A stretch of DNA of 64,000 nucleotides from Armatimonadota bacterium (GTDB lineage Bacteria > Armatimonadota > SYMT01), in the NCBI GenBank assembly GCA_046292385.1, contig JBKBRF010000039.1, forward strand, positions 1-64,000, given 5' to 3'. The first letter of the stretch is position 1. Each line of letters opens with the position of its first letter. Below, in pieces: positions 17,219 to 63,528 of this stretch. Under the pieces are notes generated by a model. That model saw nothing but the letters and a program-made list of their open reading frames with translations, was not told the origin of the DNA and did not search any database. A program made the translations under genes and the position numbers.

Positions 17219-17275
17219 TGGCTGCTTCTCCCGGGCTAGAGCGCCCCTGAGGCAAGCATACCATGCGGCTGTTCG

Positions 17276-17325
17276 GGGACAGAGGGACAGAGGGACAGAG
17301 GGACAGAGGGACAGAGGGACAGAGG
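17276..17325 (+). repeat. Octamer tandem repeat (GGGACAGA)x6
   Basis: Directly visible perfect array; a degenerate version lies at 51536-51575. Confidence 0.95.
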
Positions 17326-32693: not shown

Positions 32694-33569
32694 CTACGCC
32701 AGGACCGGCTCCGCGGCGGCTTCCTGGTCCCACAGCATGAGCTGCTTGCGGATCGCTTCCACCGTCTCCGGCGGCGTGGAGAGGCCGGAGGCGATGCCCA
32801 CCTCTTCCACCCCCTCGAACTTCGTGCGGTCGAGGCTGTCGACCGTCTCCACGTGGATCGTGTTGGCGTTATACTTCTGGCAGAGGTGCTTCAGCTCGAT
32901 CGTGTTGGCGCTGGTGGAGCTGCCGACCACGACCATCACGTCGACCCGCTGCGCCAGCTCCACGGCGTCCATCTGGCGATTGCGGACGGGGCGGCAGATC
33001 GTGTTGATCACCTGCACCTCTTTCGCCATGCAGAGCAGCTCGTTCACGATCGGCGCGCACAACTCGAACGAATGCGTGGTCTGGAAGATGACGCCGATCT
33101 TCCGCAGGAGTCGCTTGTCCAGGCTCAGCTCCCGCAGCTCGTCCACGCTGTCGATCACGATGGCGGGGCTCTGCAGGTTGCCCATGATGCCCTTGATCTC
33201 GGCGTGATTCCGGTCGCCGATGATGAACACGGTGCAGCCGCGGCGCTCCAGCTCCAGGGCGGCGTCCTGCGCCTGGGTGACGATGGGGCAGGTGGCATCG
33301 ACGATGTTGAGGCCGCGGTCGTGCGCTTCCAGGATCCGGAGCTGCGGCATGCCGTGGGCGCGGATCACCATCGTGCCGCCCTTCACGTCGTCCAGGTCGT
33401 CCACCTTCCGCAGCCCGAGCTGCTCCAGCTCCGAGGTGACGGTGCGGTTGTGGACCACGTCGCCCAGGATCGAGACGTGGTTCTGCTCGGCGAGCGCCTG
33501 GCGGGTCATGTTGATTGCCCGCTTCACACCGAAGCAGAAGCCGACTTCCTTAGCGAGGAAAACCTTCAT
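32694..33569 (-). CDS. ispH: 4-hydroxy-3-methylbut-2-enyl diphosphate reductase
   Basis: GFCFGVKRA, VHN, IRAHG, DATCP, HAEI, QTT, NTIC, SANT. Confidence 0.95.
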   Translation of the reverse strand: MKVFLAKEVGFCFGVKRAINMTRQALAEQNHVSILGDVVHNRTVTSELEQLGLRKVDDLDDVKGGTMVIRAHGMPQLRILEAHDRGLNIVDATCPIVTQAQDAALELERRGCTVFIIGDRNHAEIKGIMGNLQSPAIVIDSVDELRELSLDKRLLRKIGVIFQTTHSFELCAPIVNELLCMAKEVQVINTICRPVRNRQMDAVELAQRVDVMVVVGSSTSANTIELKHLCQKYNANTIHVETVDSLDRTKFEGVEEVGIASGLSTPPETVEAIRKQLMLWDQEAAAEPVLA

Positions 33570-33597
33570 GGTGTCCGTGCCTCATCCTCTCTCGGAG

Positions 33598-34617
33598 CTA
33601 GATGGAAGCCCCGCGCAGCTTCGGCGGGGGAGGGGCGTAGCCGTGCTCGCAGAACCAGGAGACGGCGCGCTCCAGCGCCCCCTCCACCGGGGACCGCGGC
33701 AGGCCCAGCTCCCGGACCGCCTTGCTGCCGTCGAAAAACATGCGCTTGCGGGCCATCAGGACGCCCTCTACCGGCACGCCCGGCTCCCGGCGGAGCAGCG
33801 TGCCCATGAAGAGCTCGTTCACGCGCGCGATCCCCAGCGCCGCCCCGTACGGCATTTTAGCACGGGGTGCGGGCAGGCCGGTCAGCGCGGAGAGCGTCTC
33901 CAGGATCTCCTGGAGCGTCATGTTCCGGTTGCCCAGGATGTACTTCTCACCCACCCGACCCTTCTCCGCCGCGAGGAGGTGTCCCTCCGCCACGTCGTCC
34001 ACGTCGATCAGGTTCAGCCCGGTATCGAGGTAGAGCGGCATCTGCCGGTTCAGGAAGCGGGTGATGATCTTGCCGGTCTCGGTCGGCTTGATGTCGTTCG
34101 GCCCGATCGGCGTGCTGGGATTGACGATCACCACCGGCACCCCGCGCGCGGCCGCCTTCTCCGCCTCACGCTCCGCCAGAAACTTCGAGCGCTTGTAGTG
34201 GCCGACCACTTCTTCCAGCTTCACCGGCGTCGTCTCGGTGCCGGGGGTGCCGTCTTTCGGGATCCCGAGGGCGCCGACGCTGCTGCAGTAGACGATCCGC
34301 CGGCAGCCGGCCCGCTCCGCCGCCTCCAACAGGATGCGGGTGCCGTCGACGTTGTTCCTGTAGAGCTCCTGGGGATCCTTACACCAGAGACGGTAGTCCG
34401 CCGCCACGTGGAAGACAGTGTGGCACCCCTTCACGGCAGCGGAGAGGGACGACGCGTCCTGGAGGTCTCCCACCACGCGCTCCACCGGTAGCCCATCCAG
34501 GTTTCCCGGGGGGCTTGTCTTCCGCGCCAGGCAGCGCACCTGCTCGCCGCGGTCGAGCAGCTTGCGGACGAGCCGACTCCCCACAAACCCGGTGCCGCCG
34601 GTTACGAATACAGACAT
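33598..34617 (-). CDS. hpnA: Hopanoid-associated NAD-dependent epimerase/dehydratase
   Basis: VTGGTGFVG, FHVAADYRLW, YKRSK, VNPSTPIGP.D.KPT.TG; located in the shc cluster. Confidence 0.9.
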   Translation of the reverse strand: MSVFVTGGTGFVGSRLVRKLLDRGEQVRCLARKTSPPGNLDGLPVERVVGDLQDASSLSAAVKGCHTVFHVAADYRLWCKDPQELYRNNVDGTRILLEAAERAGCRRIVYCSSVGALGIPKDGTPGTETTPVKLEEVVGHYKRSKFLAEREAEKAAARGVPVVIVNPSTPIGPNDIKPTETGKIITRFLNRQMPLYLDTGLNLIDVDDVAEGHLLAAEKGRVGEKYILGNRNMTLQEILETLSALTGLPAPRAKMPYGAALGIARVNELFMGTLLRREPGVPVEGVLMARKRMFFDGSKAVRELGLPRSPVEGALERAVSWFCEHGYAPPPPKLRGASI

Positions 34618-34623
34618 TTCTTA

Positions 34624-34722
34624 AAGTCAAAAGGCTAAAGGCAAAAGGCTAAAGTGGGAACCACGCTCTTCGGATGCGGAGGTTCGGAACTTTAGCCTTT
34701 TGCCTTTTCACTTTAGCCTTTA
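34624..34722. repeat. Inverted heptamer arrays (AAAGGCT/AGCCTTT) inside the hpn operon
   Basis: Perfect 19-bp inverted repeat 34637-34655 / 34689-34707. Confidence 0.85.
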
Positions 34723-35721
34723 CCCAAGGAAGTTCCAGGCGGCGAGGCGGACGAGCTCTTTGGGGCTCTTGCCGGCGGCGCGGACGGCGGAGGCCTCGAA
34801 GCCGGAGTGCATCTTGCAGTTGCGGCAGCGCACGTCTTTGCGGCTCTCCCAGTACTCCCAGTTCACGCCGTTCCAGAACTCGTCCCACGTCTCGTAGTAC
34901 TTCTGGCCGATCAGGTAGCAGGGGCCCTTCCATCCCATCGGCGTGTAGGTGACGGTGCTCCAGGGGGAGCAGGGGAGCTCCCGCAGGCCGGCGGCGAACT
35001 CCAGGAACATCGGGGTCGACTGCAGGCGGTACTTCTGGCTGAGGTCCAGCACCCGCCGGAACTTCTCCTCGGTCTCCCGCCGCTCCAGGAACATGTCCCG
35101 ATCCACCGACTCGTACTCGTAGCCGGGGGAGATGAGCATCCCGTCGATGCCGATGTCGGCGAGCTGCTTCGCGAGCTCCTCCACCTCGTCGATGTCGGTC
35201 TCTTTGAACACGGTGGTGTTCGTCACCATGTGGTAGCCGAGCTTCTTGCCGAGCCGGATCATCTCGATCGCCTTGTCGAAGACGCCTTCGCGGTCGCAGA
35301 CGTAGTCGTGCGTCTTCTTCAGGCCGTCCAGGTGGACGTTGATCGAGATCCGCTTGTGCGGCGGCACCACTCCGAAGAGCTTGGTATCGAGCAGGAGCGC
35401 GTTGGTGCAGAGGTAGATGTGGCGCTTGCGCGCGATGATCCCCTCCATCAGCTCCTTCAGCTGGGGGTAGACGGTCGGCTCCCCGCCGCAGATGGAGACG
35501 GTGGGGGCGCCGCTCTCCTCCACCGCCTGGAGGCACTTCTCCACCGGGATGCGGTCTCGCAGCTTGCCGGTGTGGCGCTCCGTGGTGCAGCCGAGGCAGG
35601 CGAGATTGCAGGTGTAGAGCGGCTCCAGCATCAGCACCAGGGGGTACCGCTTGCTCCCCTTCAGGCCCTGCCGGACCTGGTGCTGGATCGTATCCGTGGT
35701 GATGTGAAGCGGGAATCGCAT
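34720..35721 (-). CDS. hpnH: Adenosyl-hopene transferase (radical SAM)
   Basis: YPLVLMLEPL.TCNLACLGC, GGEP, YLCTNA, PCYL, C.NC.MHSGFEAS. Confidence 0.93.
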   Translation of the reverse strand: MRFPLHITTDTIQHQVRQGLKGSKRYPLVLMLEPLYTCNLACLGCTTERHTGKLRDRIPVEKCLQAVEESGAPTVSICGGEPTVYPQLKELMEGIIARKRHIYLCTNALLLDTKLFGVVPPHKRISINVHLDGLKKTHDYVCDREGVFDKAIEMIRLGKKLGYHMVTNTTVFKETDIDEVEELAKQLADIGIDGMLISPGYEYESVDRDMFLERRETEEKFRRVLDLSQKYRLQSTPMFLEFAAGLRELPCSPWSTVTYTPMGWKGPCYLIGQKYYETWDEFWNGVNWEYWESRKDVRCRNCKMHSGFEASAVRAAGKSPKELVRLAAWNFLG

Positions 35722-35752
35722 CCGGCGCCTGTTCCTAAACTGCGGCTCCAGG

Positions 35753-37723
35753 TCAGGCCTGGAGTAGCTCGAGCTGCCGCGCGTACATTCCCAGCGCGAA
35801 CACGGGGAAGTAGCGGCTGTAGTAGTGATACTTCAAGTAGAAGACTTTGGGAAAGCCGGTACCGGTAAAGTACGGCTCGTCCCATGATCCGTCGGCTTCC
35901 TGCGTGCGAACCAGGTAGTCGACTCCGCGCTGCACGCACTCGCTCGTCACGTCGCCGGTCGCCATCAGGCCCATCAGCGCCCACGCGGTCTGCGAGGCGG
36001 TGCTGGGGCCGGTGCCGCGCAGGCTCGGATCGTCGTAGGTGGCGCAGGTCTCGCCCCAGCCGCCGTCCTCGTTCTGCCGGGAGCGCAGCCACGCGGCGCC
36101 CGCCTGGATGTACGGCTGGCTCATCTCCTCGCCGACGGCCGAGAGGCCCTTGAGGACCTGCCACGTGCCGTAAAGGTAGTTCACGCCCCAGCGGCCGAAC
36201 CAGGCGCCGTCCGGCTCCTGCTCTTTGCGCAGGAACGCGATTGCCTTCGCGACTCTCGGGTCGCCGGTGTCGTACCCGTAGCGCCCGAGCATCTCCAGCA
36301 CGCGCCCGGTGATGTCGGCGGTGCTCGGATCGAGCATCGCGTTGTGGTCCGAGAACGGGATCTCGGTGAAGATCATCCGGTTGTTGTCCACGTCGAACGC
36401 GGCCCAACCGCCGTCGCTGCCCTGCATCGCCCAGGTCCACTCGATCGCCTGGCGGCAGATCTCGCCCTTCTCCGCTTCCTCTTCGCTGGGCAGCCGGATC
36501 CCGGCCAGCGCCATCAGCACGGCGGCGGTATCGTCGATGTCCGGATAGAACTCGTTTGCGTACTCGAAGGCCCAGGCCGCCACGGGGGCGTCCGGGCGCT
36601 TGACCGCCCAGTCGCCCTTCTCTCGCACCCGCTTCTCCAGCAGCCACTTCCCGGCCTCCACCAGGGCGGGGTCATCCGGCGGCACGCCCGCGGCGGAGAG
36701 CGACAGGGCGCAGAGCGCCGTGTCCCACACCGGGGAGACGCACGGCTGCAGGCGGAGGGTATCGTTCTCCTCGATCTCGAACGCCTCGATCTCTCGCCAC
36801 TGGCCTCGCACTTCCGGATGGTCGTCCGGGTAGCCGAGGCAGCGCATCGCCATCAGCGCGTTCACGATCGGCGGGAAGATGGCGCCGAGGCCGCCGCTCT
36901 TGCGGAAGCGCGCCACCATCCAGCGCTCGCACTCCTGGATCGCCTTCTTGCGCCACGGGAGGACCTTGACGCCCTCGAAGAAGTGCATCGTCCGGTCGAT
37001 CGCCAGGAAGAAGTTGCGCCAGCAGATCGGCTTCCGGCGGTTCCAGGGGAGGCGGAGGTGCTTGCCGTGGCGCTCCCCGACGAAGAGCTCGTCGATATGG
37101 ACCGGCAGCGGGCAGTGCGGCCGGTAAGCGGAGAGGATGGCAAGCGGGACGATGATGGTCCGGGACCAGGACGAGAGCTCGTAGAGGTTCAGGTAGAACC
37201 AGTTGGGAAGGAGGATCAGCTCCGGCGGGACCACCGGCGTTCCGTCCCAATCGTACTGCCCGAAGATCGAGAGGTAGATCTTGGTGAACGTGTTGCAGGC
37301 GGTAACGCCCCCGTGCTCCCGGATCACCTCGCGCGCGCGTACCATCTCCGGATGGTTGGCGGGAAACCCGGCGAGACGGAGCACCAGGTAGGCCTTGACG
37401 GAGGAGCTCACCTCCACCGGCCCCCCCGGGTAGAGGCTCCAGGCGCCTTCCGGCCGCCGCGACTGGTAGATGTAGGCCGCCAGTTTCCGGAGACGATCGT
37501 CGTCCAGGCAGCCCATGAAGTAGCGGAGGAGGGCGTACTCCGACTCCAGAATCGTGTCGCCTTCCAGCTCGCCCACCCAGTGGCCATCCGGCTTCTGCAG
37601 GTCGAGCAGACTCGTCTTGCCGGCTTCTAGCGTCTGGAGGACAGCGGTGGTGAGCGACGAAGACTCAGTGGCGGCAGCCGCGCGCACGGCAGGTGGCTCG
37701 ACTTGAAATTGGGTCCTTCTCAT
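35753..37723 (-). CDS. shc: Squalene-hopene cyclase
   Basis: QW repeats (Q.PDG.W, QNEDGGW), catalytic YPDIDDTA, SPVWDT, GRWGVNY, GTGFP. Confidence 0.97.
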   Translation of the reverse strand: MRRTQFQVEPPAVRAAAATESSSLTTAVLQTLEAGKTSLLDLQKPDGHWVGELEGDTILESEYALLRYFMGCLDDDRLRKLAAYIYQSRRPEGAWSLYPGGPVEVSSSVKAYLVLRLAGFPANHPEMVRAREVIREHGGVTACNTFTKIYLSIFGQYDWDGTPVVPPELILLPNWFYLNLYELSSWSRTIIVPLAILSAYRPHCPLPVHIDELFVGERHGKHLRLPWNRRKPICWRNFFLAIDRTMHFFEGVKVLPWRKKAIQECERWMVARFRKSGGLGAIFPPIVNALMAMRCLGYPDDHPEVRGQWREIEAFEIEENDTLRLQPCVSPVWDTALCALSLSAAGVPPDDPALVEAGKWLLEKRVREKGDWAVKRPDAPVAAWAFEYANEFYPDIDDTAAVLMALAGIRLPSEEEAEKGEICRQAIEWTWAMQGSDGGWAAFDVDNNRMIFTEIPFSDHNAMLDPSTADITGRVLEMLGRYGYDTGDPRVAKAIAFLRKEQEPDGAWFGRWGVNYLYGTWQVLKGLSAVGEEMSQPYIQAGAAWLRSRQNEDGGWGETCATYDDPSLRGTGPSTASQTAWALMGLMATGDVTSECVQRGVDYLVRTQEADGSWDEPYFTGTGFPKVFYLKYHYYSRYFPVFALGMYARQLELLQA

Positions 37724-42571: not shown

Positions 42572-42964
42572 TTACCGCCAGCCCCGCTCCCGCTGCTCCT
42601 CGACGGCCCTACTGATGCACTCCGTGAAGTGGTCGCACACACGCAGAGGACCGGGCTCGCCTTCGACGTAGTGGTAAACGGGCGGGTCGTCGCCTTCCGA
42701 GGCGCGAATGAAGTCGAATTCCCAGCCGCCGTGCATGGCGAAGACCACGGCATCTTCCGGCAGGGTCCAGCCGTGCCGCTCCGCCAGGAGGGCGGCGTCC
42801 TCGCGCACGTCGATCTCGGTCGGGTATAGGAACGTGTCCCCGAGGTAGAGCGGACCCGCCGCCTTGCCCATCACGGCGAGAAAGCCGCGGTAGGCAGGGG
42901 GGAGCCGGAGGCCCAGCACCGCCTCGACCCGGGCAATCTCCTCCGCCGAGCAGCCGGCTACCAC
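42572..42964 (-). CDS. SMI1/KNR4 (SUKH) family immunity protein
   Basis: GCSAEEIARVE..LG..LP..Y..FL..MG and DDPPVY..FTE. The 5' end is uncertain. Confidence 0.8.
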   Translation of the reverse strand: MVAGCSAEEIARVEAVLGLRLPPAYRGFLAVMGKAAGPLYLGDTFLYPTEIDVREDAALLAERHGWTLPEDAVVFAMHGGWEFDFIRASEGDDPPVYHYVEGEPGPLRVCDHFTECISRAVEEQRERGWR

Positions 42965-49012: not shown

Positions 49013-49429
49013 TCCCTGAGCTTGAGCTGGCTCGCCGTGCGTAGTGTGGCGCGAGGTGGATGCGCGCCTTCCCAGTAGGTTCTGCCGCTCGGCGGCAAGC
49101 AGCGTCGATCTCGTGTGTCCGCCCCCGCGCCCTAGTCGGCCGATTCAGCCCTCCCGCGACGTGTGCCCTCCGCGGCCTTTTCACGCCCTTCGGGCTAGCA
49201 GGCCGCTGCAGGAGTGCGCTTCGGTTCGCTCTTCCCGCGCCATTGCGTTCTACTGCCACATTGGCCGGGTTCACGGGCTGAATCGGCCGCCGTCGAGCGA
49301 CTGCCCCCGGCGCCCGGGGGCAGTCACAATTGCCGTCCTCCGGTGCAGCCTGCGGCTGCCCCTCCGGACGCCTCAGGAAGGGCGCACCATCGGCGTTTAG
49401 CAGAACCACACGCGAAGGAAGTTGGTCCT

Positions 49430-50074
49430 GTGGCGGAACTCTTCAAGACCATCGGCTCCACCGTGCTTCGGGTGCGGTGCGACGACCATCTCTTGCGGCA
49501 GGCACAGGGCGTTCTGGACTCGGCCGCGACGTTTGCGCATACGGAGAACGGTCTTTCTCCTGGTGTCACGATCCAGTTCGGGTGGTCGTTGTTGATGCTG
49601 TGGCCCGACGGAGACCTGCTTGCGATCTGCGAGCCGGATTTCGATGGCGATGCGCTGCGTGCGTTTCGGGATGACGTGAGCTGTACTCTGGAGGTCGTCA
49701 CTCTCCAGACCCAATTCCTCCGGCAGCTTGGGATTGAGGCGGGGTCGCTGCGCTTCGATGAAAAGGTTGTATTCAAGCGAGGCGCCTTGTCAGAGTGTCG
49801 GATCTATGCCGAGAGACAAGCCTCGGCTCCCGGGGATTCCGGCTGGTACGTCGGGCCGGCCGATGACACCACTCCTCCGACTACCGAGGCCCTGACAGCG
49901 TGCCGCGTCTACGAGTTGCTCCGGCTCCGCCCCTCACTGCTTCCGGCTCTGGCGCTCCCGGAAGGCTTTCTGGTGGTGTTCAACGGTGATGCGGTGGAAG
50001 CCGTTCTCGATCCTGGAAATGAGAACCGTTGGCCGGGAGACGCCGGAATGTGGCAGAGCGCCCCCTTTTCCTGA
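49430..50074 (+). CDS. Imm33/DUF2185-like immunity protein
   Basis: TIQFGW..EPDF, GDSGWY, LALPEGF; lower GC and atypical codon usage. Confidence 0.65.
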   Translation: MAELFKTIGSTVLRVRCDDHLLRQAQGVLDSAATFAHTENGLSPGVTIQFGWSLLMLWPDGDLLAICEPDFDGDALRAFRDDVSCTLEVVTLQTQFLRQLGIEAGSLRFDEKVVFKRGALSECRIYAERQASAPGDSGWYVGPADDTTPPTTEALTACRVYELLRLRPSLLPALALPEGFLVVFNGDAVEAVLDPGNENRWPGDAGMWQSAPFS

Positions 50075-50264: not shown

Positions 50265-51536
50265 GTGAATTCCTGGAAAGCCTCCGCCCTTGCCGCGCTC
50301 GGCGTCACCGGACTGGTGGCCGGCGCCGTCGCCCGCCAGCCGGTGGCCGCGGTCGCGCAGAGCGCGCCGAGCTGGCTGTCCGACTTCGAAGCAGCCCGCG
50401 CGCAGGCGCGGCAGTCCGGTAAGCCGATCTTCCTCGTCTTCCGGTGAGAGCGTTGAACGTCTTGCAAGACGCTTGACTCACAGGTGGTGAGTCCTCAAGA
50501 CCCCGAGCTCTCCAAACTGCTCACCGAATTCGTTCCCGCGCGCGTCGTCAACTTCAAGGGCGTCGACCTGAACCGCTTCCAGTTCGACTACGACCTGACG
50601 TTCGCGGTGCTGATGATGAACGCCGACGGGGTGACCTACTCCCGCTTCGGCACGCAGAACGCCGACCACTCGCCGGAGCTGATGTCGATCGCCGGGCTGA
50701 AACAGGCGATGAAGGACGTGCTGGCGGTGCACCGGTCCGGCACGACAGCCGCACCGCCCGCGAAGCAGGCGCCGCTCACGATCGCGGACATCCCCGCGTT
50801 CGCCCGCACGAAGCAGGCGAGCGAGGCGTGCTACCACTGCCACTACGCCAATAACGCCCGGATCGACACGCTGAAGCTGGAGGGCAAGTTCCGTAAGGAG
50901 ATGCTGTTCCAGTACCCGCATCCGGAGAACGTCGGCCTCACGCTCGACCCGGACCGGAACAACGTGGTGAAGGCGGTCCTTCCCGGCTCCCCCGCGGAGA
51001 CTGCGGGGCTCAGGGCGGGCGACCGGATCGCTCGGGCTAATGGCGCGCGGGTCATCACGGGGGCGGACCTTCAGTTCGCGCTGAATCCGGTCCCGGACCC
51101 GGGCTCGATTACGCTGGAGGTGACCCGCGGCGAGCAGAAGCTGCCAGCCGCGAAGCTGGAGCTGCCGCGCGGCTGGCGGCGCACTGACATCAGCTGGCGC
51201 GCCTCCCAGGGCGGGATTTCGCCGACGATGGGCTTCTGGGGCCGGCCGCTGACCGACGAGCAGAAGCGCCCGCACGGCATCGCGCCGGACCGCCTGGCGA
51301 TCGAGGCGAACTTCATGTTCCCCGGCCCGGTCTGGGAGAAGTCGCGCGGCGGGCTGCAGAACGGCGACCTCGTGGTGGAGGTGAACGGGAAGTCGCTCCC
51401 GAGCATGACGATGCGCCAGTTCCACACCTACTTCCGTCTGAACCACGAGGTGGGGGAGACCGTCACGGTGCAGGTGCTCCGCGGCGGGAAGAAGGTTGAC
51501 CTGCGGGTCCCCTGCATCGAGGCGCCGGAAGAGTAG
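50265..51536 (+). CDS. Secreted thioredoxin-like/CxxCH/PDZ protein, probable double selenoprotein (U-x-x-U-x-x-C)
   Basis: AAGGAG RBS and GTG 50265; signal peptide; KPIFLVFR-TGA-ER-TGA-TSCKTLDSQVV joins ORFs 49986-50447 and 50484-51536 in frame; FQFDYDLTF, CYHCH, two PDZ domains. Confidence 0.8.
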
Positions 51537-52897: not shown

Positions 52898-55800
52898 TTA
52901 TCCCCAGGCCAGTCCCTCCTCTCGGAGGCGGTGGTAGGGGTGCGCGGTCTGGAGCCACTGGCGGTAGACCTCCGCCGTGAGGCCGAGCATGCGGCCGCGG
53001 CGGCCTTCCCGCTCCGTCTCCTCCAGCCGGAGCAGCCCCACGGCGTTCAGCTTCTCCACCGCGGCGCGGAAGACGTAGGGTCGCAGGCTCGGGTCGTCCT
53101 GTGCCGCCGACTGCAGGAGGTCGTCTTCCCACCGCGTCTCGCCGCGCGGGCACTGCTCGGCGAAGAAGGAGATCAGCAGTCGCTCGGGCGCCTCGAGCTG
53201 GCCCCAGACGTGGTCCAGGTGCGCGCCCGCCGCGGCGATGACGGGTCCACTCTCCGCCTCCACGTCGTCCCGCGTCACGTTCCGCTTCCGGAGCCGGTTC
53301 AGCCGCTCCACCAGGTGGAAGCCGAACATCTGCGTGAAGTAGGGGTGCGCGCCGGCCAGCTCCAGCACCGCCTGCAGCGCCTCTTCGTCGTAGGTGACGC
53401 CCGCGGAGCGGACCGGCTCCTCCACCAGCGCCACGGCATCCTGCGGGCGGAGGAAGTCGACGTTCAGGAAGACGCCGATGTTGAACAGGAAGGTGACGTA
53501 GTTCGCCGCGAACTGCCGCAGGATGTGCGTGCCGGAGAAGAGGAACTCGATCCCCTCCGAGTGCTGCATCAGGTGCCGCAGGTAGTCGAAGGCGCGGGAG
53601 TCGAAGGTCCCCTTCATCACGCGCTGGGCGAGCACTTCGAACTCGTCCAGCATCAAGAGCACGCGCCCGCCGCCCAGCTTCCGCCGCACCTCCGGCAGAA
53701 TGACCGTCTCGAACTGGTAGTCGGGCGGGCTCTGGCTGAACTCCGCGAAGCCCGGGAGCTCCACGTTGACCCCGCGCTCCGCCAGCGCGTCTTTCATCCG
53801 CCACGCCAGCCACCAGACGAAGCCGGGGAGGTCGGTGGCGGTGAGGCCCTGGAGGTCGATGAAGAGCGGGGTCAGGTCGCCCGTGAGGCGGTACTGGAGC
53901 TGCTTCAGCGCGGAGGTCTTACCGCTCCGGCGCTCGCCGATCAGGATCAGGATCGTCCGCTGCGCCGGACGGATTAGCCGCTCCCGGACGTTCTGGATGA
54001 TGTCTTCCCGCCCGACGAAGACCGGCGCGCCGCTTTCCAGCGGGGTGCCGACCACATACGGGTTCGGAATTCGCCGGAAGCCGTCGGTGGGGGCGGCGCC
54101 GACCAGCCGTGCCGGGAGCAACGGCGTGCGGCAGTTGCCGCAGAGCCCCGGCAGCGCCTCCGCCTGCGCGCCGAGGACATTCTCGCACTCGGGGCAGAGG
54201 TAGGTCTCTCCGCGGCGCAGCCACTCCGTCTCCTGCGCGGCGGGGGTGCGGGCGTACTCTTCCAGCAGCTCGTCGTAGCGCGCCGCGGCGGCGACCGCTG
54301 CCAGGCGCAGCGCGCGCTCGCGGGCGGAGGGATCGACGCCGGGGAAGGTGACGCGGGACGCGCCTTCGCCGCGGACTGCCCGCTCGATCTGGAGCGCGCA
54401 CCACTCGACGCCGCGCGACTGCACCGTCCGGTCGGCTGCTTGCGAGGCTGCCTGCAGTGCGGGGAGGTCGCCCGCGAGCTGCCGGACGGCGCGGTCCCAC
54501 TCGGCGGGAAGCGGCATGCGGCGGCCCAGCTCGTCCGCCGGTACCAGGCTGGGCGGGAGGGGGATCACGCCCTCCACCGTGTGCAGGTAGCCGAACGCGA
54601 GCCCGAGAAACAGGGCGTCGGACGCGTCCCGCAGGCGCGTGCGGGAGACGAGGCCGGCGGCGTACCAGGGGAGGTCGGCCCGGCTGAAGGCGGTGCCGAC
54701 CTCCCGCAGCGCGGGTCCCTCGAACGCCTCCGCAAGCTGGATGAAGGCGGGGCAGCGTGCCAGGGAGAAGCCGGGATGCTCCGCCAGCGCGGTGAGATAC
54801 TGCGGAGCCCGGGAGCCGGCGAGGCGGATCGAGCGCTCGGCGCCGGCCCCCTCCACCACCAGCGCCAGCGCCTTCGGCACTTCGTTCGCCTTGGCGTCGC
54901 TGAAGAAGACGAGCTCATACTCCGAGGCCATCCCCGCGGGGCGCGCGTGCGGTGGCTCCAGGCCGGGGAGCGCGGCGGCGCCGTTCACCAGCGTCCGCAG
55001 CCGGTACTCCAGCTCCATCGGGTCCCGGTACTGCTCCGCCAGCCGCTGGAAGGCGCTCGCGGAGAGCCAGCCGCGCAGGCGGTCCTCCAGGCGCCGGAAG
55101 AGGTCCAGGTCGATCCGCTGCAGCAGCTCGCCGGCCGCGCGCTCCGGCCCCGCCGCGGGGGCCGCCGAGCCGGCGGCGAGCCACGCGGGCGCCGCGGCGT
55201 CCCGCTCGGCCGGCGCGGCGTCGAGGAGCGACCGTCCCGGCATGGCGAGCAGGCCGTCCTCGCGGCGGACCAGCCACTCCACCCAGCCCTTCCGCAGCTC
55301 CCGGAGCGCGTCCCGCTCGTCTTCCGGGCGGCAGAACGGCAGCCGCCAGCCGCTGTGCGCCACGAACGGCGTCTCCCGGCCCGGCAGCCGCAGCAGGCCG
55401 AGCGCGAGGCGTCCCTCTTCTTCCTCTCGCCGCAGCCATTCCAGCAGCGACGATTCCTGGTCCGCCCAGGCGGAGGAGAACGCCCCCAGCCGGGAGGCGA
55501 CCGCCCTGGCGCGCTCGCCCCAGATGCGGAGCGGCGCCTCCACGCTCGCCCGCAGCTCGCGGAGGAACGGGAGCGACTCCATCCGCAGCGTGTGCGCCAC
55601 GGAAGCGGCGGCGACGCGCTCGTAGTCTTTCGCCAGCGCCCGCAGCGCCGTTCCCCGCCACGGGATCAGGAACGGGTCCCGCCGGGCGGCACCGACCGCC
55701 GTGATGAGCCGCAGCCGGGAGGCGGCGATCGCGTCCCGCGCCGCCTGCCACTCGCCCGCGGGGTCGCTCACGGTGCGCAGCTCCGCGGCCGCTTCCAGGA

Positions 55801-57121
55801 GGACGCGGCCGGTGCGGTCGAGGCTCTGCTCCTCCCGCTCCATCCACTCCGCAGAGCGGCGGCGCAGCTCGTCCAGCGCCTGCTCCGTCAGCTCGCGGGT
55901 GCGGTCGGCCGCCGGGCCCTTCCCCGGGCGCCCGGAAGCCGGAGGAGTGCCGACCGCCTCCCGCAGCGCCTCCTCCAGCTCCGCGTCCATGCCCTGCCAC
56001 TGGGAGACCGGCGCGCGGTGGATCCACGGCAGGCGCGTGCGCACCGGGCGCAGCACCCCCTCGCCGCTGCCGTCGCGCGCGGCGGCGAGCTGCCCGGTGA
56101 CCCGCTCCGCCAGCGCCTGGGGATCGGTGAGCGGGACGCTCCCATGCAGCTCCTGCAGGTGCGGCGGGTGCTCGCCGTGCAGCCAGGAGGCGACCGATCG
56201 CCGCACCAGGTTGCGGTAGACCGCGCGGACCAGCCGCTCCTCCGGATACTCCACCCACTCCGTGCCGAAGGTGCCGAAGCGCTGCGGGTTGCCGTCCGGA
56301 TCGACCGGCGCCACCGCCCCCTCGCGGCTCTCCCGCTCCCGCGCCCAGGTGCCGGCGTCCGCCCCGCAGGCGGTGAGCAGGTAGATCGAGGCGCGGTCCT
56401 GCTGCTCGGAGAGCGGGATCAGGTTCCCCTCGGCGTCGAGCGAGGTGAGCAGCGATACCCGCTGGAACGGCGCTTCCCGGGTGGAGTACGGCTCTTCGCC
56501 GGAAAGGTGCGCGGAGTAGAGGGTCCGCGGGTCGGCGTAGTAGTGAAGCTCCGTTAGCGCCGCGAAGGCGTTGCGTCCGGCGTCCGCCTCCGTGTGCGGC
56601 GGGACCAGCAGGATCGCCCGGCTCTCGACCGGTGTCTGCCCGGCACTCTGGCGCAGCAGGTAGCCGAGGTCCGCCGCGACCGCTCCCCCGGTGCCGCCTC
56701 CGGCCCCCGCCACCACGAAGACCCGCCGGGACGCCGCTCCCGCGGTGTCGGCAAGCCACTGGCCCAGGCGGCTCGCCACGAGGTCCCGGTTCTCCGGCAG
56801 CAGGAAGAGGAAGCGGCCCAGCATCCGCGAGCCGCGCGCGCCCTGCTCTACGTTCCCGGCGCCCCGGAGCACGTCTCGCTCCACCCATTCCGCGTGGAAC
56901 CGCTCCGGCGCCCGGTAGGCCGCGTCGAGGAGCGCCGCCGTGGCGGTGAGCACTACCGTCTCCCCGCCGGACGCCTCCGCGGCGGTGCGGTCGGTATCGA
57001 GCAGCAGGAAGCGGACCTCGCCGCCGCCCGCCTCCAGCGCCGCCGCGCCGAGCCGCTCCCGCAGCCGCCGGGCGACTTCGACTCCGACACCGCCCACGCC
57101 GATGACGAGGGTCTCACTCAT
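52898..57121 (-). CDS. Tubulin/FtsZ-like GTPase, helical region, Zn ribbon and STAND-type P-loop NTPase fusion (1407 aa)
   Basis: N-terminal IGVGGVG and GGGTGG; CPEC..CGNC; NPYVVG.P..FVGRE, Walker A GERRSGKT, Walker B LLMLDEFE, LAGAHPY; winged-helix-like C-terminus. Confidence 0.8.
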   Translation of the reverse strand: MSETLVIGVGGVGVEVARRLRERLGAAALEAGGGEVRFLLLDTDRTAAEASGGETVVLTATAALLDAAYRAPERFHAEWVERDVLRGAGNVEQGARGSRMLGRFLFLLPENRDLVASRLGQWLADTAGAASRRVFVVAGAGGGTGGAVAADLGYLLRQSAGQTPVESRAILLVPPHTEADAGRNAFAALTELHYYADPRTLYSAHLSGEEPYSTREAPFQRVSLLTSLDAEGNLIPLSEQQDRASIYLLTACGADAGTWARERESREGAVAPVDPDGNPQRFGTFGTEWVEYPEERLVRAVYRNLVRRSVASWLHGEHPPHLQELHGSVPLTDPQALAERVTGQLAAARDGSGEGVLRPVRTRLPWIHRAPVSQWQGMDAELEEALREAVGTPPASGRPGKGPAADRTRELTEQALDELRRRSAEWMEREEQSLDRTGRVLLEAAAELRTVSDPAGEWQAARDAIAASRLRLITAVGAARRDPFLIPWRGTALRALAKDYERVAAASVAHTLRMESLPFLRELRASVEAPLRIWGERARAVASRLGAFSSAWADQESSLLEWLRREEEEGRLALGLLRLPGRETPFVAHSGWRLPFCRPEDERDALRELRKGWVEWLVRREDGLLAMPGRSLLDAAPAERDAAAPAWLAAGSAAPAAGPERAAGELLQRIDLDLFRRLEDRLRGWLSASAFQRLAEQYRDPMELEYRLRTLVNGAAALPGLEPPHARPAGMASEYELVFFSDAKANEVPKALALVVEGAGAERSIRLAGSRAPQYLTALAEHPGFSLARCPAFIQLAEAFEGPALREVGTAFSRADLPWYAAGLVSRTRLRDASDALFLGLAFGYLHTVEGVIPLPPSLVPADELGRRMPLPAEWDRAVRQLAGDLPALQAASQAADRTVQSRGVEWCALQIERAVRGEGASRVTFPGVDPSARERALRLAAVAAAARYDELLEEYARTPAAQETEWLRRGETYLCPECENVLGAQAEALPGLCGNCRTPLLPARLVGAAPTDGFRRIPNPYVVGTPLESGAPVFVGREDIIQNVRERLIRPAQRTILILIGERRSGKTSALKQLQYRLTGDLTPLFIDLQGLTATDLPGFVWWLAWRMKDALAERGVNVELPGFAEFSQSPPDYQFETVILPEVRRKLGGGRVLLMLDEFEVLAQRVMKGTFDSRAFDYLRHLMQHSEGIEFLFSGTHILRQFAANYVTFLFNIGVFLNVDFLRPQDAVALVEEPVRSAGVTYDEEALQAVLELAGAHPYFTQMFGFHLVERLNRLRKRNVTRDDVEAESGPVIAAAGAHLDHVWGQLEAPERLLISFFAEQCPRGETRWEDDLLQSAAQDDPSLRPYVFRAAVEKLNAVGLLRLEETEREGRRGRMLGLTAEVYRQWLQTAHPYHRLREEGLAWG

Positions 57122-57440
57122 GGCCGGTCCTCCGCAGTCCCGCGCCGCGCGGGAGGGTCACCACCGCCAGTACCAGGAGCACCGCCCCGACGGCGATCTC
57201 CGCGATCCGGAGCGTCGACGCCAGCCCCGGATCCGCGACGTAGCGCGGCCACCAGAAGCCGTTCACGTAGGCGACCCACACCGCGAAGCCGGCGAGCTTA
57301 CCCGCGCGCGTCGCCCAGAAGAGCTGCGTGGAGCGCGGCTTCAGAAGCTCCAGCCCGAGCCGGAACACCGCGAAATCTGCCAGGAGCGCGAGCGGGATCG
57401 AGGCGGCGAGCCAGCCCCATCCCTCCGAGGAAATGTTCAT
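57114..57440 (-). CDS. Small 3-TM membrane protein overlapping the start of the tubulin-like gene
   Basis: GGAGG RBS and ATG 57440 (MNISSEGWGW); three hydrophobic helices; 8-nt overlap. Confidence 0.7.
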   Translation of the reverse strand: MNISSEGWGWLAASIPLALLADFAVFRLGLELLKPRSTQLFWATRAGKLAGFAVWVAYVNGFWWPRYVADPGLASTLRIAEIAVGAVLLVLAVVTLPRGAGLRRTGHE

Positions 57441-57730
57441 CCAGGTACCTCCCGCCGGCGGGCGACCGGCCTGGAGAAGCGGCAAGTAGCTGTTCGACCG
57501 GCCCCTGTGAGCCATTGTTCCGCGCCTCCCGGTTGACCTGCAACCGCCCACCCGAACCTTCCTGGAGCCGGTCACGGCTCTCGAGACGCTGCGGCGCTGG
57601 GCAGGCTCGCTTGCTACCTGCGCTCAGCGCCTCACGCTCGATCGTCGCCAGTCGCGTCGACTCCTCGTCGGGAGCAGGCCTTGGGTGCCTGGAGGCTCCG
57701 CCGGAGGCGGGGCTGGAGGGCACCATTTGT

Positions 57731-60277: not shown

Positions 60278-61540
60278 TTAGCTGTTCCGCGGGGTGGGGC
60301 AGGCGAGGGCGGGGCCGGCGCTGCCGGTGGCGGCGTCGGAGAGGTCTTCCAGCACCTTGAGCAGGTCGTCGGTGCCGACTCCCAGCCGCATCGCCACGGA
60401 GGAGAGCGTCTCCATGCTGGTGTTGCGGTCGAGCCACCCGATCGAGTGGGGGGCCGCCTCCCAGGTGCGCTGCTGCGCGTCGAGGTCGGCGCGCGCCGAT
60501 TCGTAGGCGGCGGCGGCCTGAAGCGCGCGGTAGCGGACCCCGTCCAGGTCAACCAGCTTCACCTTGCCGGCCACCTCTTCCATCGGCACCGCGCGGAACG
60601 TGTCGCCCTCGACCGTCACCATGTGGCCGGTCCGCTCCGGATCGAGAATGAAGCGCGTGGCGCCCTGGCCCAGCTTGGCGGCGTAGGAGCGGTCGAAGCC
60701 GGTCGGCTCCGCGCAGCGCAGGAAGTAGCCGAGGTTGCTGGTGCGTACCGCCACCGGCGAGCTTTCGGCGCAGGCTCGCTCGAGGCGCTCCGCCAGGGCA
60801 TCGGAGATGCCGCCGAGGCGGCCGTACCGCGTGAGGTGGCCGTCGCCGAAGTGCGCCGATTCGGCGACGAGCACCACGCCCCAGTTCAGGCCGGAGGCGG
60901 CGCGGGTGCGGACCAGCTCCGCCAGCTCGCCGACGTCGATCGATCCCTCTTCGGGGATCAGCACGCGGGTGCAGCCGGCGGCGAGCCCCGCCTCCAGCGC
61001 CAGGTGCCCGGCGTAGCGGCCCATGATCTCCACCACGAACCAGTGGCCGGAGGCCTCCGCGTCGAGCTTGATCGCGGTGAGCATGCGCGCGGCTTCGTGG
61101 ACCGCGGTGTCGTAACCGAAGCTCTGCTCCACGCCCGCGATGTCGTTGTCGATCGTCTTCGGCACGTGGACCACCCGCAGGCCGGTCTGGCGAAGGCGAT
61201 CGGCGAGCTGCAGGGTGCCCTCACCGCCGATCGAGATCAGGCCGTCGATCCCCTCCCGCTGGAGGTGCCCGCAGATCCGGGCCAGGTCTTCGCCCCGGTC
61301 GTCGATCCGGTAGCGCGAGGTCCCGATGATGCTGCCGCCCAGGATATGGACGTCTTCCACCCGCTCCCGCGTGAGGTGGACGAAGCGTCCGTCGACCAGC
61401 CCCTTCGCGCCGTTCAGGAAGCCCATCACCCGCACGCCGGCGTTGTCCGCCTCCTGCACGATCCCCTTGATGACGGCGTTGATCCCGGCGGCCGGACCGC
61501 CCGCCACGAACACCCCGATCTTGTCGAACCCACCCGGCAT
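60278..61540 (-). CDS. pfkA: 6-phosphofructokinase with a C-terminal extension
   Basis: GGPAAGINA, GGSIIGTSR, IGGEGT, PKTIDND, VEIMGR, LGY..R. Confidence 0.9.
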   Translation of the reverse strand: MPGGFDKIGVFVAGGPAAGINAVIKGIVQEADNAGVRVMGFLNGAKGLVDGRFVHLTRERVEDVHILGGSIIGTSRYRIDDRGEDLARICGHLQREGIDGLISIGGEGTLQLADRLRQTGLRVVHVPKTIDNDIAGVEQSFGYDTAVHEAARMLTAIKLDAEASGHWFVVEIMGRYAGHLALEAGLAAGCTRVLIPEEGSIDVGELAELVRTRAASGLNWGVVLVAESAHFGDGHLTRYGRLGGISDALAERLERACAESSPVAVRTSNLGYFLRCAEPTGFDRSYAAKLGQGATRFILDPERTGHMVTVEGDTFRAVPMEEVAGKVKLVDLDGVRYRALQAAAAYESARADLDAQQRTWEAAPHSIGWLDRNTSMETLSSVAMRLGVGTDDLLKVLEDLSDAATGSAGPALACPTPRNS

Positions 61541-61774
61541 GCCTTCGCTCTCCCGTGCTCCGTCGCTCAGTCCCAACCTGCTCGGACAAACGCGAGACTG
61601 ACGACCCGCTCTTTACGTAGTGTAAGGCGGAGGTTCCGCGCCCGGCGGAACCCAACTTGCAATTCGTCCAGCTATACTTCTTTCGCTCTGGAGTGGGAGA
61701 GCCGCTCCCGTGAGCAGCTTCTCAAGCTCGCCCTCTCGCCCACTCTCCCACTCGTAGATTCACGGAGCCGCCTC

Positions 61775-62677
61775 ATGTCGTGGATAACCCCGCGGAGACT
61801 CGCCGCCGGCGCGGTGCTCTCCGCGCTGCTCGTGTCGCCGGTCCTCGCCGCCGCGCAGGAGAAAGCCCCAGCTCCTTCGCGGCCATCTTACCGCATCCCG
61901 TACCGGATCACCGACACCAAGCACCTGCTGGTGCGGGCTCGGGTGAACGGGAAGGGGCCGTTCCACTTCATCGTCGACACCGGCGCGCCGGCCATCTTCA
62001 TCACCAAGGAGGCGGCGAAGCGGTGCGGGCTCGCCGCCGGCCCGGACGGCTGGGGCGAGATCGCGGCGCTCGACGTGGAGGGCGGCCTCCGCGCGGAGAA
62101 GGTGCTGGCCCGGGCGGAAGACCTCTACCAGTTCCGCGGCATGAACTCCATGGGCCTGGCCGGCATGCGGATCGACGGGGTGTTCGGCTACCACTTCCTT
62201 GCTCGCTACCGGATGGAGATCGATCCGGACCAGCCGACGATGCGCTGGACGGAGGTCGGCTACCAGCCGCAGCCGCTCCCCTCGCTGGAGGAGCTTTCCC
62301 CGGACAAGCCGATCGACGTGCCGGAAGAGCTGAAGGGAATGGAGGGCCTCACCCAGATCGCCGCGGCACTGCTGGGGAAGCGGCCGGAGCCGAAGGTGGT
62401 GGCCCGCGGCTTCCTGGGCCTGGAGCTGGCTGGAATGGCCGCGCCGGCGCTGGTGCGGGCCACGCTTCCGGACTCGCCCGCGCGGAAGGCGGGGCTCCTG
62501 CGAGGCGACCGCATCCAGGCGGTGACGGTGGGCGGGAAGGCGCGGCGCGTGACGAAGGGGCAGGAGGTCCACGCCGCCCTTTCCTCGCTCAAGGCCGGGC
62601 AGAAGGCGTACTTCACCCTCAGTCGCAAGGGCAAGACGTTGAAGGTGCCGGTTACCGCGGCCGGGGGAGGCTTCTGA
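61775..62677 (+). CDS. Secreted retropepsin-like aspartyl protease with PDZ domain, paralog 1
   Basis: Signal peptide, VNGKGPF.FIVDTGA, DGVFG, PDZ (FLGL..SPA.KAGL..GD.I). Confidence 0.85.
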   Translation: MSWITPRRLAAGAVLSALLVSPVLAAAQEKAPAPSRPSYRIPYRITDTKHLLVRARVNGKGPFHFIVDTGAPAIFITKEAAKRCGLAAGPDGWGEIAALDVEGGLRAEKVLARAEDLYQFRGMNSMGLAGMRIDGVFGYHFLARYRMEIDPDQPTMRWTEVGYQPQPLPSLEELSPDKPIDVPEELKGMEGLTQIAAALLGKRPEPKVVARGFLGLELAGMAAPALVRATLPDSPARKAGLLRGDRIQAVTVGGKARRVTKGQEVHAALSSLKAGQKAYFTLSRKGKTLKVPVTAAGGGF

Positions 62678-63528
62678 TGCACCGCGCGCTCACTCCGCTG
62701 CTCCTGGCCGGCGCGCTGGCAGCCGGATCCCCGGCCTGGTCCGCGCCGGCACCCGCCGCGCCGAAGACGGTCACCGTGCCGATGCGGATCATGCGGACCG
62801 GCCACTTTACGGTCGGCGTCCGGGTGAACGGCAAGGGCCCGTTCCGGCTGGTGATGGATACCGGCTCGCCCGTCACCTTCATCACCGCCCGCGCCGCCCA
62901 GAAGGTGGGGCTGCTCACCGCCGCCGCCGCGAAGAAGCCCGCCCTGCTGGGGATGCGCGGACAGTCGCAGGCCGCGTCGTTCAAGGTCGGTGCCTGCGAG
63001 GTGAAGGACCTCCCGATCCTGCTGCTCGACCACCCGGTGATCGACATGCTCTCCCAGGTCGAAGGGCCGATCGACGGCATCGTTGGCTTCTCGTTCTTCG
63101 CCCGCTTCCGGACGACGATCGACTACGAAGCGGCGCGGGTCACCTTCGCGCCCACTCGCTACGCGGGCGGCGACGTCGTCTCCGACCTGACCTCCACCAT
63201 CGGCTCTCGCCGTCCCACGGAGCGGCTGCTCACCCCGGCCGCGCAGTGGGGCCTGGAAGTGGAGGCGCTCCCCGCCCCCGCCGAGGGCGCGGAGGGGGAG
63301 CCGGCGCGGGGCGTGCGGATCAAGCGCGTCTACGAGGGCGGCGCCTCCGCCGCGGCGGGGCTGCGCGAGGGAGACGTGCTGCTGGAGATCGACGGCTCCT
63401 GGACCGACTCGGTCACCGACACCCTGGAAGCGGTCGCCCGCACCCGCGCCGGCACCCCGGTAGCGGTGCGCGTGCAGCGAGACGGCGAGGAGCTGAAGAT
63501 CAGCGTGCGCCCACGCGCGGGGCTTTGA
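62677..63528 (+). CDS. Secreted retropepsin-like aspartyl protease with PDZ domain, paralog 2
   Basis: TGATG coupling; VNGKGPF.LVMDTGS, DGIVG, PDZ (AAGLREGDVLLEIDG). Confidence 0.85.
   Translation: MHRALTPLLLAGALAAGSPAWSAPAPAAPKTVTVPMRIMRTGHFTVGVRVNGKGPFRLVMDTGSPVTFITARAAQKVGLLTAAAAKKPALLGMRGQSQAASFKVGACEVKDLPILLLDHPVIDMLSQVEGPIDGIVGFSFFARFRTTIDYEAARVTFAPTRYAGGDVVSDLTSTIGSRRPTERLLTPAAQWGLEVEALPAPAEGAEGEPARGVRIKRVYEGGASAAAGLREGDVLLEIDGSWTDSVTDTLEAVARTRAGTPVAVRVQRDGEELKISVRPRAGL

Follow-up and report, generated by a model that had tools for sequence, protein, structure and literature searches.

The stretch of DNA analysed here, referred to as the window, comprises 64,000 nucleotides (positions 1 to 64,000 of contig JBKBRF010000039.1, assembly GCA_046292385.1) from an Armatimonadota bacterium. 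The system in question consists of a large gene, whose 1407-amino-acid product joins a tubulin/FtsZ-like body of the FtsZl1 (Tubulin_2) type to a STAND-like AAA+ ATPase, and of a small gene directly upstream that encodes a membrane protein. Sequence comparisons indicate that the two genes are a self-contained, vertically inherited module of one Armatimonadota family. We regard the module as a new arrangement, an FtsZl1 system that has been cut to two genes and carries a grafted STAND-like ATPase. The novelty lies only in the appended ATPase and winged helix-turn-helix (wHTH), since the helical region and the zinc ribbon that precede them are the normal body and end of an FtsZl1 protein. The anatomy of the large protein is near certain. 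For mechanism and role taken jointly, we favour an ATP-licensed, tubulin-like assembly at the membrane that serves a lineage-specific cell-biological function, and give this reading a probability of roughly 0.45.

In the mechanism that we propose, ATP binding by the C-terminal module would drive oligomerisation, as is established for STAND proteins and for Orc-type AAA+ proteins. Oligomerisation would gather several tubulin-like domains and could thereby nucleate or gate their GTP-dependent assembly, and the small membrane protein would tether this assembly to the cytoplasmic membrane. Because of the phyletic pattern, the substitution rate and the genomic context of the module, a housekeeping-type cytoskeletal or membrane-remodelling function that is associated with the membrane and specific to the lineage is somewhat more likely than classical anti-phage defence. 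To our knowledge, the FtsZl1/Tubulin_2 proteins, widespread as they are, have not been the subject of any experiment, and opinions on their role are divided between membrane remodelling and conflict. The fusion physically couples such a tubulin-like protein to a nucleotide-driven oligomerisation switch and brings the system down to two genes, which makes it a compact and testable case for asking how a divergent tubulin may be licensed to assemble.

A preliminary description of this DNA, made from the sequence alone, had reported a tubulin-like signature, a zinc ribbon and NTPase motifs in one 1407-amino-acid open reading frame (ORF), and every motif that it quoted is present in the translation. 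The T1 loop IGVGGVG occupies residues 7-13 and AGAGGGTGGA residues 138-147; the zinc ribbon CPEC-x14-CGNC has its cysteines at C976, C979, C994 and C997. NPYVVG begins at residue 1020, FVGRE at 1035 and GAHPY at 1257, while GERRSGKT spans residues 1062-1069 and LLMLDEFE 1155-1162. Pfam assigns Tubulin_2 (PF13809) to residues 5-310 with an E value of 9.9e-27 (94.5 bits, where the cut-off is 27) and AAA_22 to residues 1054-1203 (E 2.3e-7); AAA_16, ATPase_2 and PF00091 (E 0.013) match weakly. In all 30 aligned members of the family the four cysteines, the Walker A and the Walker B motif are invariant (among them G1062, E1063, R1064, R1065, G1067, K1068, T1069, D1159 and E1160), which puts the motif set far beyond chance, and the T1 and T4 glycines G8, G10, G13, G142, G143 and G145 are nearly so. 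AAA_22 matches all 30 of these proteins, Tubulin_2 28, AAA_16 24, nSTAND1 eight and ATPase_2 three. No block of the alignment is hypervariable, short indel-rich loops excepted; identity within the family is 59-77% over residues 961-1407 and 31-55% over residues 1-1000.

The small gene had been described as a three-transmembrane (3-TM) gene that overlaps the start of the large gene by 8 nucleotides. The overlap is as stated, with the stop codon TGA of the small gene (57114-57116) and the ATG of the fusion gene (57119-57121) both contained in ATGAGTGA. Shine-Dalgarno sites precede both starts, GGAGGA 6 nucleotides ahead of the fusion gene ATG and GGGAGG ahead of the small gene ATG at 57440, and the gene call of the source annotation (P0195) is likewise 108 amino acids long. 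The small protein is strongly hydrophobic at about residues 8-33 and 72-102 (Kyte-Doolittle, 19-residue window), but the third segment, at about residues 47-65, is aromatic-rich with a mean of about 0.9 by hand calculation, below the threshold of 1.4. Three transmembrane helices, one of them weaker, are therefore plausible, and with three helices the positions of basic residues, in the tail and the first loop, point to an outward-facing N-terminus and an inward-facing C-terminus. A scan for promoters and terminators gave no promoter-like site, and two terminator-like sites against 1.4 expected, both within the ORF.

Homologues of the small protein (30-47% identity, 105-120 amino acids) are encoded directly upstream of the fusion gene and on the same strand in all eight unique loci that have a 5' flank, namely the window, L001 (identical to L084), L003, L004, L006, L007 (identical to L087), L085 and L086. 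The family of the small protein amounts to only 15 clusters in a large database (102-127 amino acids), several of them on contigs of equal size to contigs that bear the fusion. The conserved unit is two genes, with the small gene as a dedicated partner and no other gene conserved around them, in agreement with the membrane-linked pair that had been proposed. When residues 1-890 were modelled together with the small protein, the predicted complex scored 0.37 (0.37, 0.30 and 0.38 in the separate runs) while the best control scored 0.00, with a predicted local distance difference test (pLDDT) value of at least 72 for the partner and an agreement of contacts between runs of at least 74%. Of 157 solved complexes 116 attained the mark used for such predictions, as did 2 of 215 mismatches; no more than 18 of the 157, together with both of the passing mismatches, did so with a score of 0.60 or under. 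The prediction lends weak support to a complex of the large and the small protein.

When 5.8 billion proteins were searched with a word index, 32 of the 8000 candidates that were scored had E values up to 1e-3. Twenty-six of them are full-length, 54-61% identical and matched by both Pfam domains, and three more are full-length at 39-44% identity; the others are a 793-amino-acid fragment, an unrelated ATPase protein of 973 amino acids and the query itself. Since the 29 further full-length homologues come from independent NCBI, JGI, ENA and Logan assemblies, the fusion is not an assembly chimera, which the preliminary description had named as one way in which it might be wrong. The junctions were also compared with sequencing runs by means of assembled contigs. 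A contig of the probable source run, which is not independent, covers positions 53303-57700 without a difference. Short soil-metagenome contigs from two other studies bridge 57071-57459 and 56971-57287, at the junction of the small and the large gene, and 54027-54347, in the region of the zinc ribbon and linker, and speak, to a minor degree, against the junctions being artefacts of assembly. Candidate joints in this comparison had sides of 20-26 letters and were treated as noise.

The phylum was sampled with 401 genomes, seven of which belong to the family of the window's genome (f1) and 394 to other families. The full-length fusion gene was found in all seven, that is in the window's genome and in six of six others from five further genera, and in none of the 394, of which 20 have matches to the ATPase part alone or the tubulin part alone. 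Four of the six other copies are intact, one is cut by the end of a contig, and in one a TGA or frameshift breaks the reading frame. This last copy (L006, or G086:C108, 5992-10247) is read in two overlapping frames of 615 and 820 amino acids with one TGA inside, and could be either a pseudogene or a sequencing error. A contig scan with the single fusion protein as query found only one locus. Within the same f1 genomes the fusion is 55-61% identical overall and 69-77% identical over residues 961-1407, compared to 62-69% for phosphofructokinase (PFK) and 76-81% for FtsZ. By this comparison the fusion evolves at a slow, housekeeping-like rate, close to that of the PFK gene nearby. Conservation of this kind, vertical and family-wide, calls into question the reading of every STAND or Tubulin_2 gene as an immunity gene.

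The N-terminal part was studied in an AlphaFold2 model of residues 1-1000 (pLDDT 88.5, predicted template modelling score 0.78). Foldseek matches this model to FtsZ and CetZ at E values of 6e-6 to 8e-5. In VIA, a search of all against representatives, the closest structure is CetZ (Z 26.7, 313 of 342 residues aligned, root-mean-square deviation (rmsd) 5.4), followed by BtubA (25.6), the Asgard, eukaryotic and gamma tubulins (25.3 to 24.0), TubZ (22.6) and FtsZ (22.5); the top tubulin-superfamily alignments, with Z from 26.7 to 24.0, cover 313-338 residues. An ordinary Rossmann dehydrogenase can be rejected, as the best SDR reaches a Z of 7.9 against 26.7 for CetZ, and the tubulin-like N-terminus of the preliminary description stands. 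The model predicts a true tubulin/FtsZ fold with two domains, made up of the GTPase domain, the core helix and the activation domain. The VIA alignments to 16 tubulin-superfamily chains align 276-341 residues, yet end at model residues 785-875, and the elements recognised by DSSP follow in the order 282-291, 294-315, the helices of 372-716, and then 735-740, 750-760, 764-770, 775-781 and 791-811. For this reason, a helical region of about 400 residues is probably inserted in the activation domain, and residues of about 735-845 would finish the fold. The helical region has only weak helical-bundle matches in VIA (Z under 8), and residues 320-970 had no usable match in the ESM Atlas. The model suggests a whole tubulin fold, with an insertion of this size, for the FtsZl1 proteins. 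In P0031 and P0032, the most divergent members of the family, the GGTGG of the T4 loop is lost (AGAGDDSATG and ASAADAEGGG) and all ATPase motifs are kept; these are possible inactive-GTPase variants.

The first 1000 residues or so are a complete FtsZl1-type protein, because the family profile aligns with a profile of stand-alone Tubulin_2 proteins of about 1000-1044 amino acids (hhalign probability 100%, E 1.7e-58, 840 columns, approximately the first 920 residues) and because a (G)YYCxxC...C...C zinc ribbon like that at residues 976-997 forms the C-terminal end of seven of nine stand-alone relatives. A profile search against PDB sequences gave only a weak rubrerythrin zinc-ribbon match (E 0.46). 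The roughly 700 residues of helical sequence and the zinc ribbon of the preliminary description are thus present, but they are the normal FtsZl1 body and its end and not linkers. In the available text of the study that described FtsZl1 (PF13809; PMC2875224), these proteins of about 1000 amino acids have, like the fusion, an N-terminal FtsZ-like GTPase with T1 and T4, a long helical or coiled-coil region and an alpha-helical C-terminal part, with transmembrane proteins encoded alongside and a canonical FtsZ elsewhere in the genome. The fusion differs in having about 400 amino acids of AAA+ and wHTH behind the zinc ribbon and in comprising two genes only, and the typical (not universal) vWA, kinase, GTPase and OmpA neighbours are absent at its locus. 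It also differs in that our predicted model suggests a complete tubulin fold, which, so far as that text goes, went undetected from sequence in 2010.

Within the phylum, the stand-alone proteins most closely related to the tubulin body, of about 1075-1082 amino acids, are found in three genomes of two other families (L118, L119 and L121). In all three a gene for a protein of 107-121 amino acids with two to three transmembrane segments lies directly upstream on the same strand, a trypsin-like peptidase gene lies directly downstream, and HSP70-like proteins are encoded as well; GrpE occurs in one, and a 3-TM protein of about 450 amino acids is encoded upstream in two. The tubulin body, the upstream small transmembrane gene and the terminal zinc ribbon are as in the fusion, whereas the trypsin-like peptidase and HSP70-like proteins are additional and the ATPase is missing. 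The small transmembrane proteins of the two groups are alike in position, size and TM3-PR ending. Homology between them was not shown by hhalign (probability 0.3%), and a hidden Markov model of the small family of the fusion had no match at the three loci. These operons resemble themes in the available text of Kaur et al. (2020, PMC7159879), in which tubulins with HSP70 and GrpE appear in GTPase-centric conflict systems and rare FtsZ/tubulin effector domains are listed.

The C-terminal part was modelled separately (residues 961-1407, pLDDT 88.2), and the model has the NOD-type layout of AAA+ core, helical lid and winged helix. The winged helix consists of three helices and a beta hairpin by DSSP, and alignments to 2qen, Orc and Cdc6 reach model residues 432-443. 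Over the ATPase and winged helix the best structural matches in VIA are the archaeal ATPase_2 proteins PABY2304 (2qen; Z 23.0, 332 of 350 residues aligned) and SSO1545 (2fna; Z 20.7, 325 residues), at a sequence identity of 14-15%. Both are stand-alone proteins of about 350 amino acids, and we know of no established function for either. The NLR and STAND proteins matched include the wheat G10 NLR (Z 19.7), WRR4A (18.4), CED-4 (14.9), Avs5 (14.8), MalT (14.2) and Avs3 (13.1). Orc/Cdc6 proteins range from 19.6 to 17.0 at an rmsd of 7.7-9.2 Å, with ORC2 at 19.6 and Cdc6/Orc1 on DNA at 18.3, and the DNA-bound filaments of MuB and TnsC score about 15. Foldseek places Orc2 and Cdc6 on top (E 9.5e-12). 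The model thus predicts a STAND-like AAA+ ATPase with a winged helix, of the ATPase_2/nSTAND1/NLR kind.

Judged by Pfam, membership of the STAND class is borderline. The nSTAND1 model (PF20703) has no match to the fusion protein at E values up to 1, matches eight of its 30 aligned family members at E values up to 0.01 (best 3.5e-8), and gives P0003 26.2 bits where the cut-off is 27.1. The STAND-type ATPase of the preliminary description therefore holds for the fold and only in part for the Pfam assignment. Its winged-helix-like end without a TPR, WD or LRR sensor agrees with the structural matches; Pfam finds no C-terminal repeats in the fusion protein, and the chain ends about 20 residues past the winged helix. 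Relatives of the ATPase module within the phylum are 28-38% identical. Thirteen were scanned, of which nine have HEAT repeats, in an N-terminal position, two have TPR repeats and two no further domain; nSTAND1 matches nine of these 13, and relatives show a MarR_2 or HTH_20 match at the position of the winged helix. Stand-alone versions of about 380 amino acids are numerous in metagenomes. The loci L103-L111, L113 and L114 encode proteins of 700-1200 amino acids in which N-terminal HEAT repeats precede the same nSTAND1-like ATPase with the NPY motif and winged helix; elsewhere in the phylum, one family has proteins of this type in abundance (f25, matches in 11 of 15 genomes).

With nSTAND1 and STAND NTPases (Kaur et al., 2021, PMC8195603; NLR, CED-4, Avs) the fusion shares the P-loop AAA+ core, lid and winged helix, the FxGRE ahead of Walker A and the GxHPY in the lid. 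The fusion differs in lacking C-terminal repeats and a classical effector, and its variable part is N-terminal, as in the HEAT relatives. ParA-STAND grafts (bioRxiv 10.64898/2026.10.19.760177) are comparable, but there the grafted NTPase is ParA and not a tubulin, C-terminal repeats or TIR parts are kept, and the authors, in the text available, treat them as patchy immune genes.

Of 1.84 billion representatives, 4706 matched a profile of the tubulin domain at E values up to 1e-3. In the best 150 of these matches, only the two full-length representatives of the family itself (1435 and 1325 amino acids) are long enough for an N-terminal tubulin domain and an ATPase. Twenty-four other matches were scanned and contained Tubulin_2 alone (13) or a kinase with Tubulin_2 (11), and none had an AAA domain; residues 1-330, as the query of a word-indexed search, led to the same result. 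The preliminary description did not know the fusion as a described system, and we found no account of a tubulin-STAND fusion in the literature searched, although supplementary tables may contain the architecture. Databases hold the fusion unremarked, with one JGI record under the automatic name 'tubulin-like protein/AAA domain-containing protein'.

The fusion gene is chromosomal and single-copy and does not lie on plasmid- or phage-like contigs. Metabolic genes in the window include those for 2-oxoglutarate dehydrogenase, sulfite reductase, IlvD, squalene-hopene cyclase, pyruvate:ferredoxin oxidoreductase and PFK, and Pfam scans of the window showed no transposase, mobile element or recognised defence gene near the fusion locus. 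The reported absence of vWA and kinase genes nearby was confirmed within about 5 kilobases (kb); vWA, kinase, GTPase and OmpA genes are likewise missing from the flanks in the window and at six related loci. HSP70, GrpE, trypsin and GTPase genes were not found in Pfam scans of the window flanks, for which GAP1 was without a Pfam model; the locus does not show the joint neighbourhood of DO-GTPase, GAP1, tubulin and HSP70 that marks the GTPase-centric systems of Kaur et al. (2020). Neighbours at the related loci vary and include ABC transporters, DNA ligase, gamma-glutamyl transpeptidase, a histidine kinase, CrcB, acyl-CoA dehydrogenase and Uma2, among others. Synteny with a DegT gene, which had been suggested, is not conserved, as seven related loci have no DegT homologue and different neighbours at each. 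PFK adjoins the module in two relatives and lies 2.8 kb away in the window, and its proximity in three genomes fits vertical descent of the module. No significant match was found in PADLOC 2.0 (best PDC-S01, E 0.021 over 40 residues) or in NCBIfam (best DS8_antiphage, E 0.14, 9.8 bits where the cut-off is 790).

A canonical FtsZ is encoded on another contig of the same genome. The fusion gene is thus not a replacement for FtsZ, and the module is an accessory system and not part of the divisome. The genome also has a second Tubulin_2 gene on contig C15 (locus L116), which encodes a very divergent protein of 1090 amino acids and follows genes for a vWA protein and a 1233-amino-acid TCAD9/HD-CE protein, with two transposase genes beside the cluster. 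Such a setting with vWA is the one that the preliminary description had named as usual for Tubulin_2 proteins. BLASTP between this Tubulin_2 protein and the fusion protein was not significant (best E 0.26).

Several points weigh against the reading that we favour. Oligomerisation, polymerisation and membrane tethering of the fusion system are steps that we infer, and so is the control of polymerisation by STAND oligomerisation put forward in the preliminary description, whose observation was confirmed and whose interpretation is partly supported. The seven f1 genomes are related and are not independent samples. For the catalytic T7 residue the candidates are conserved acidic residues in candidate loops (D255 nearly invariant, D274 invariant), and GTP-dependent polymerisation may be dispensable, given that the T4 loops of P0031 and P0032 are degenerate while their ATPase is intact. 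By the calibration of such predictions, a complex prediction at the score obtained is more often wrong than right unless the pairing is likely beforehand. The operons of the nearest stand-alone tubulin relatives contain trypsin-like peptidase, HSP70-like and GrpE genes, and contexts of tubulin and HSP70 have been read as conflict systems in the available text of Kaur et al. (2020, PMC7159879); in that of Kaur et al. (2021, PMC8195603), counter-invader systems are where nSTAND1 was defined. In addition, the TCAD9/HD-CE, vWA and Tubulin_2 genes of L116 give the same genome a conflict cluster of the classical ternary type.

A conflict or immune function would have the STAND-like module sense an invader or stress and oligomerise, whereupon the tubulin-like part, as effector, would assemble at the membrane through the 3-TM protein and cause membrane disturbance, growth arrest or a physical barrier, as in abortive infection. 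Small transmembrane proteins are common as effectors of abortive infection, the NLR and STAND proteins (wheat NLR, WRR4A, CED-4, Avs5 and Avs3) are among the best structural matches of the ATPase, and the nSTAND1 matches in the family and in its ATPase relatives point in the same direction, as do the trypsin, HSP70-like and GrpE neighbours of the sister stand-alone tubulins and the tubulin homologues and rare FtsZ/tubulin effectors of GTPase-centric conflict systems in the available text of PMC7159879. However, the module is present in every family genome sampled, with PFK synteny and a PFK-like substitution rate. Defence genes are usually patchy and fast-evolving. The fusion protein moreover has neither a repeat sensor nor an enzymatic effector, its alignment has no hypervariable block, its neighbourhood is of the housekeeping type without a mobile element, and PADLOC gave no significant match. 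The defence role suggested earlier is thus possible, but family-wide vertical inheritance and the housekeeping context argue against a typical defence gene, and we consider a conflict function unlikely, though far from negligible.

Another explanation is a machine linked to DNA, in which an Orc/Cdc6-like AAA+ winged helix would bind DNA and the tubulin-like part would move it or anchor it at the membrane, as a fused analogue of TubZ-TubR partition or a tether between nucleoid and membrane. The Foldseek ranking of Orc2 and Cdc6, the VIA scores for ORC2, for Cdc6/Orc1 on DNA and for MuB and TnsC, the matches of TubZ and PhuZ to the N-terminus (Z 19-22.6) and the MarR_2 or HTH_20 matches of relatives all agree with it. 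Its probability is nevertheless low, as the rmsd to Orc/Cdc6 is high, ATPases of unknown function and NLRs match better, and the gene is chromosomal and single-copy, away from plasmid- or phage-like contigs; the winged helix is also a standard part of STAND modules that does not bind DNA. Repeated centromere-like DNA was not seen, no search for such repeats having been made. About as improbable is a dual-NTPase switch that forms no filament, in which the tubulin-like domain would be a GTP-binding regulator, a dimeriser or an inert scaffold of a membrane AAA+ complex. The ATPase module is the most conserved part of the protein and the T4 loops of P0031 and P0032 are degenerate, as such a switch would allow, and Makarova and Koonin (2010, PMC2875224), in the text available, did not detect T6-H7 and the C-terminal polymerisation elements in FtsZl1 and considered that filaments are perhaps not formed. 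On the other hand, both domains of the tubulin fold are complete in the predicted model, with Z of 24-27 over 313-338 residues, the GTP-binding loops are conserved, and Tubulin_2 matches nearly all family members. A more far-reaching reading, which we think a long shot, would be a STAND-like module that closes into a ring and templates the tubulin-like domains, a self-contained prokaryotic analogue of the gamma-tubulin ring complex that would nucleate tubes or rings of several protofilaments at the membrane through the 3-TM anchor. The family would then own a previously unseen membrane cytoskeleton that is licensed by ATP and driven by GTP, and switches of the 'immune' STAND type could serve as housekeeping nucleators of polymers.

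Table 1. Positions of the two genes, of the parts of the fusion protein and of related loci.
Feature	Position	Strand	Remarks
Fusion protein gene	52898..57121	(-)	1407 amino acids, ATG start; FtsZl1/Tubulin_2 body, zinc ribbon, STAND-like AAA+ ATPase, winged helix
Tubulin/FtsZ-like GTPase domain	56192..57109	(-)	residues 5-310 by Pfam; T1 GxGGxG 7-13, T4 GGTGG 142-146
Long helical region	54932..56164	(-)	residues about 320-730; within FtsZl1 body; conserved loop LRLPGxETPYVxxSGW at about 576-592
Beta/alpha segment	54587..54919	(-)	residues about 735-845; appears to complete the tubulin fold (S8-H10-S9-S10 and later helices)
Zinc ribbon CxxC-x14-CxxC	54131..54196	(-)	ancestral C-terminal end of FtsZl1 body; fusion point just behind
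AAA+ ATPase core and helical lid	53192..54079	(-)	residues about 1015-1310; NPYxxGxP, FxGRE, GxHPY in lid
Walker A GERRSGKT	53915-53938	(-)	within AAA+ core
Walker B LLMLDEFE	53636-53659	(-)	within AAA+ core
C-terminal winged helix-turn-helix	52967..53191	(-)	residues about 1311-1385; short conserved tail behind, ending W1406
Small membrane protein gene	57114..57440	(-)	108 amino acids, about 3 TM; upstream partner of fusion gene
Stand-alone Tubulin_2 operons	L118 6737-12717; L119 4437-10371; L121 18-4410		
L116 cluster genes	2018-5719, 5898-8189, 8189-11461		transposases 13656-15455, 15695-17371

Elsewhere in the window, an Imm33-like domain protein is encoded at 49214-50074 on the plus strand (E 4.5e-15) and a SUKH-1/SMI1-KNR4 protein at 42572-42964 on the minus strand (E 8.7e-14). 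In polymorphic toxin systems, domains of both kinds often belong to the immunity proteins; in the Pfam scans of the window, no toxin gene came to notice next to either gene. A 669-amino-acid ORF at 28216-30225 on the plus strand has two stretches that match ThyX (Thy1) and is unusually long for a flavin-dependent thymidylate synthase. The minus strand carries a run of hopanoid type at 32694-37723, with LytB/IspH, an NAD-dependent epimerase, a radical SAM protein with DUF3463 and squalene-hopene cyclase. The plus-strand ORF at 60446-62677 overlaps the minus-strand PFK gene (60278-61576), and the real gene for an aspartyl protease with a PDZ domain is probably the shorter ORF at 61780-63528. A further PDZ protein is encoded at 50484-51536.

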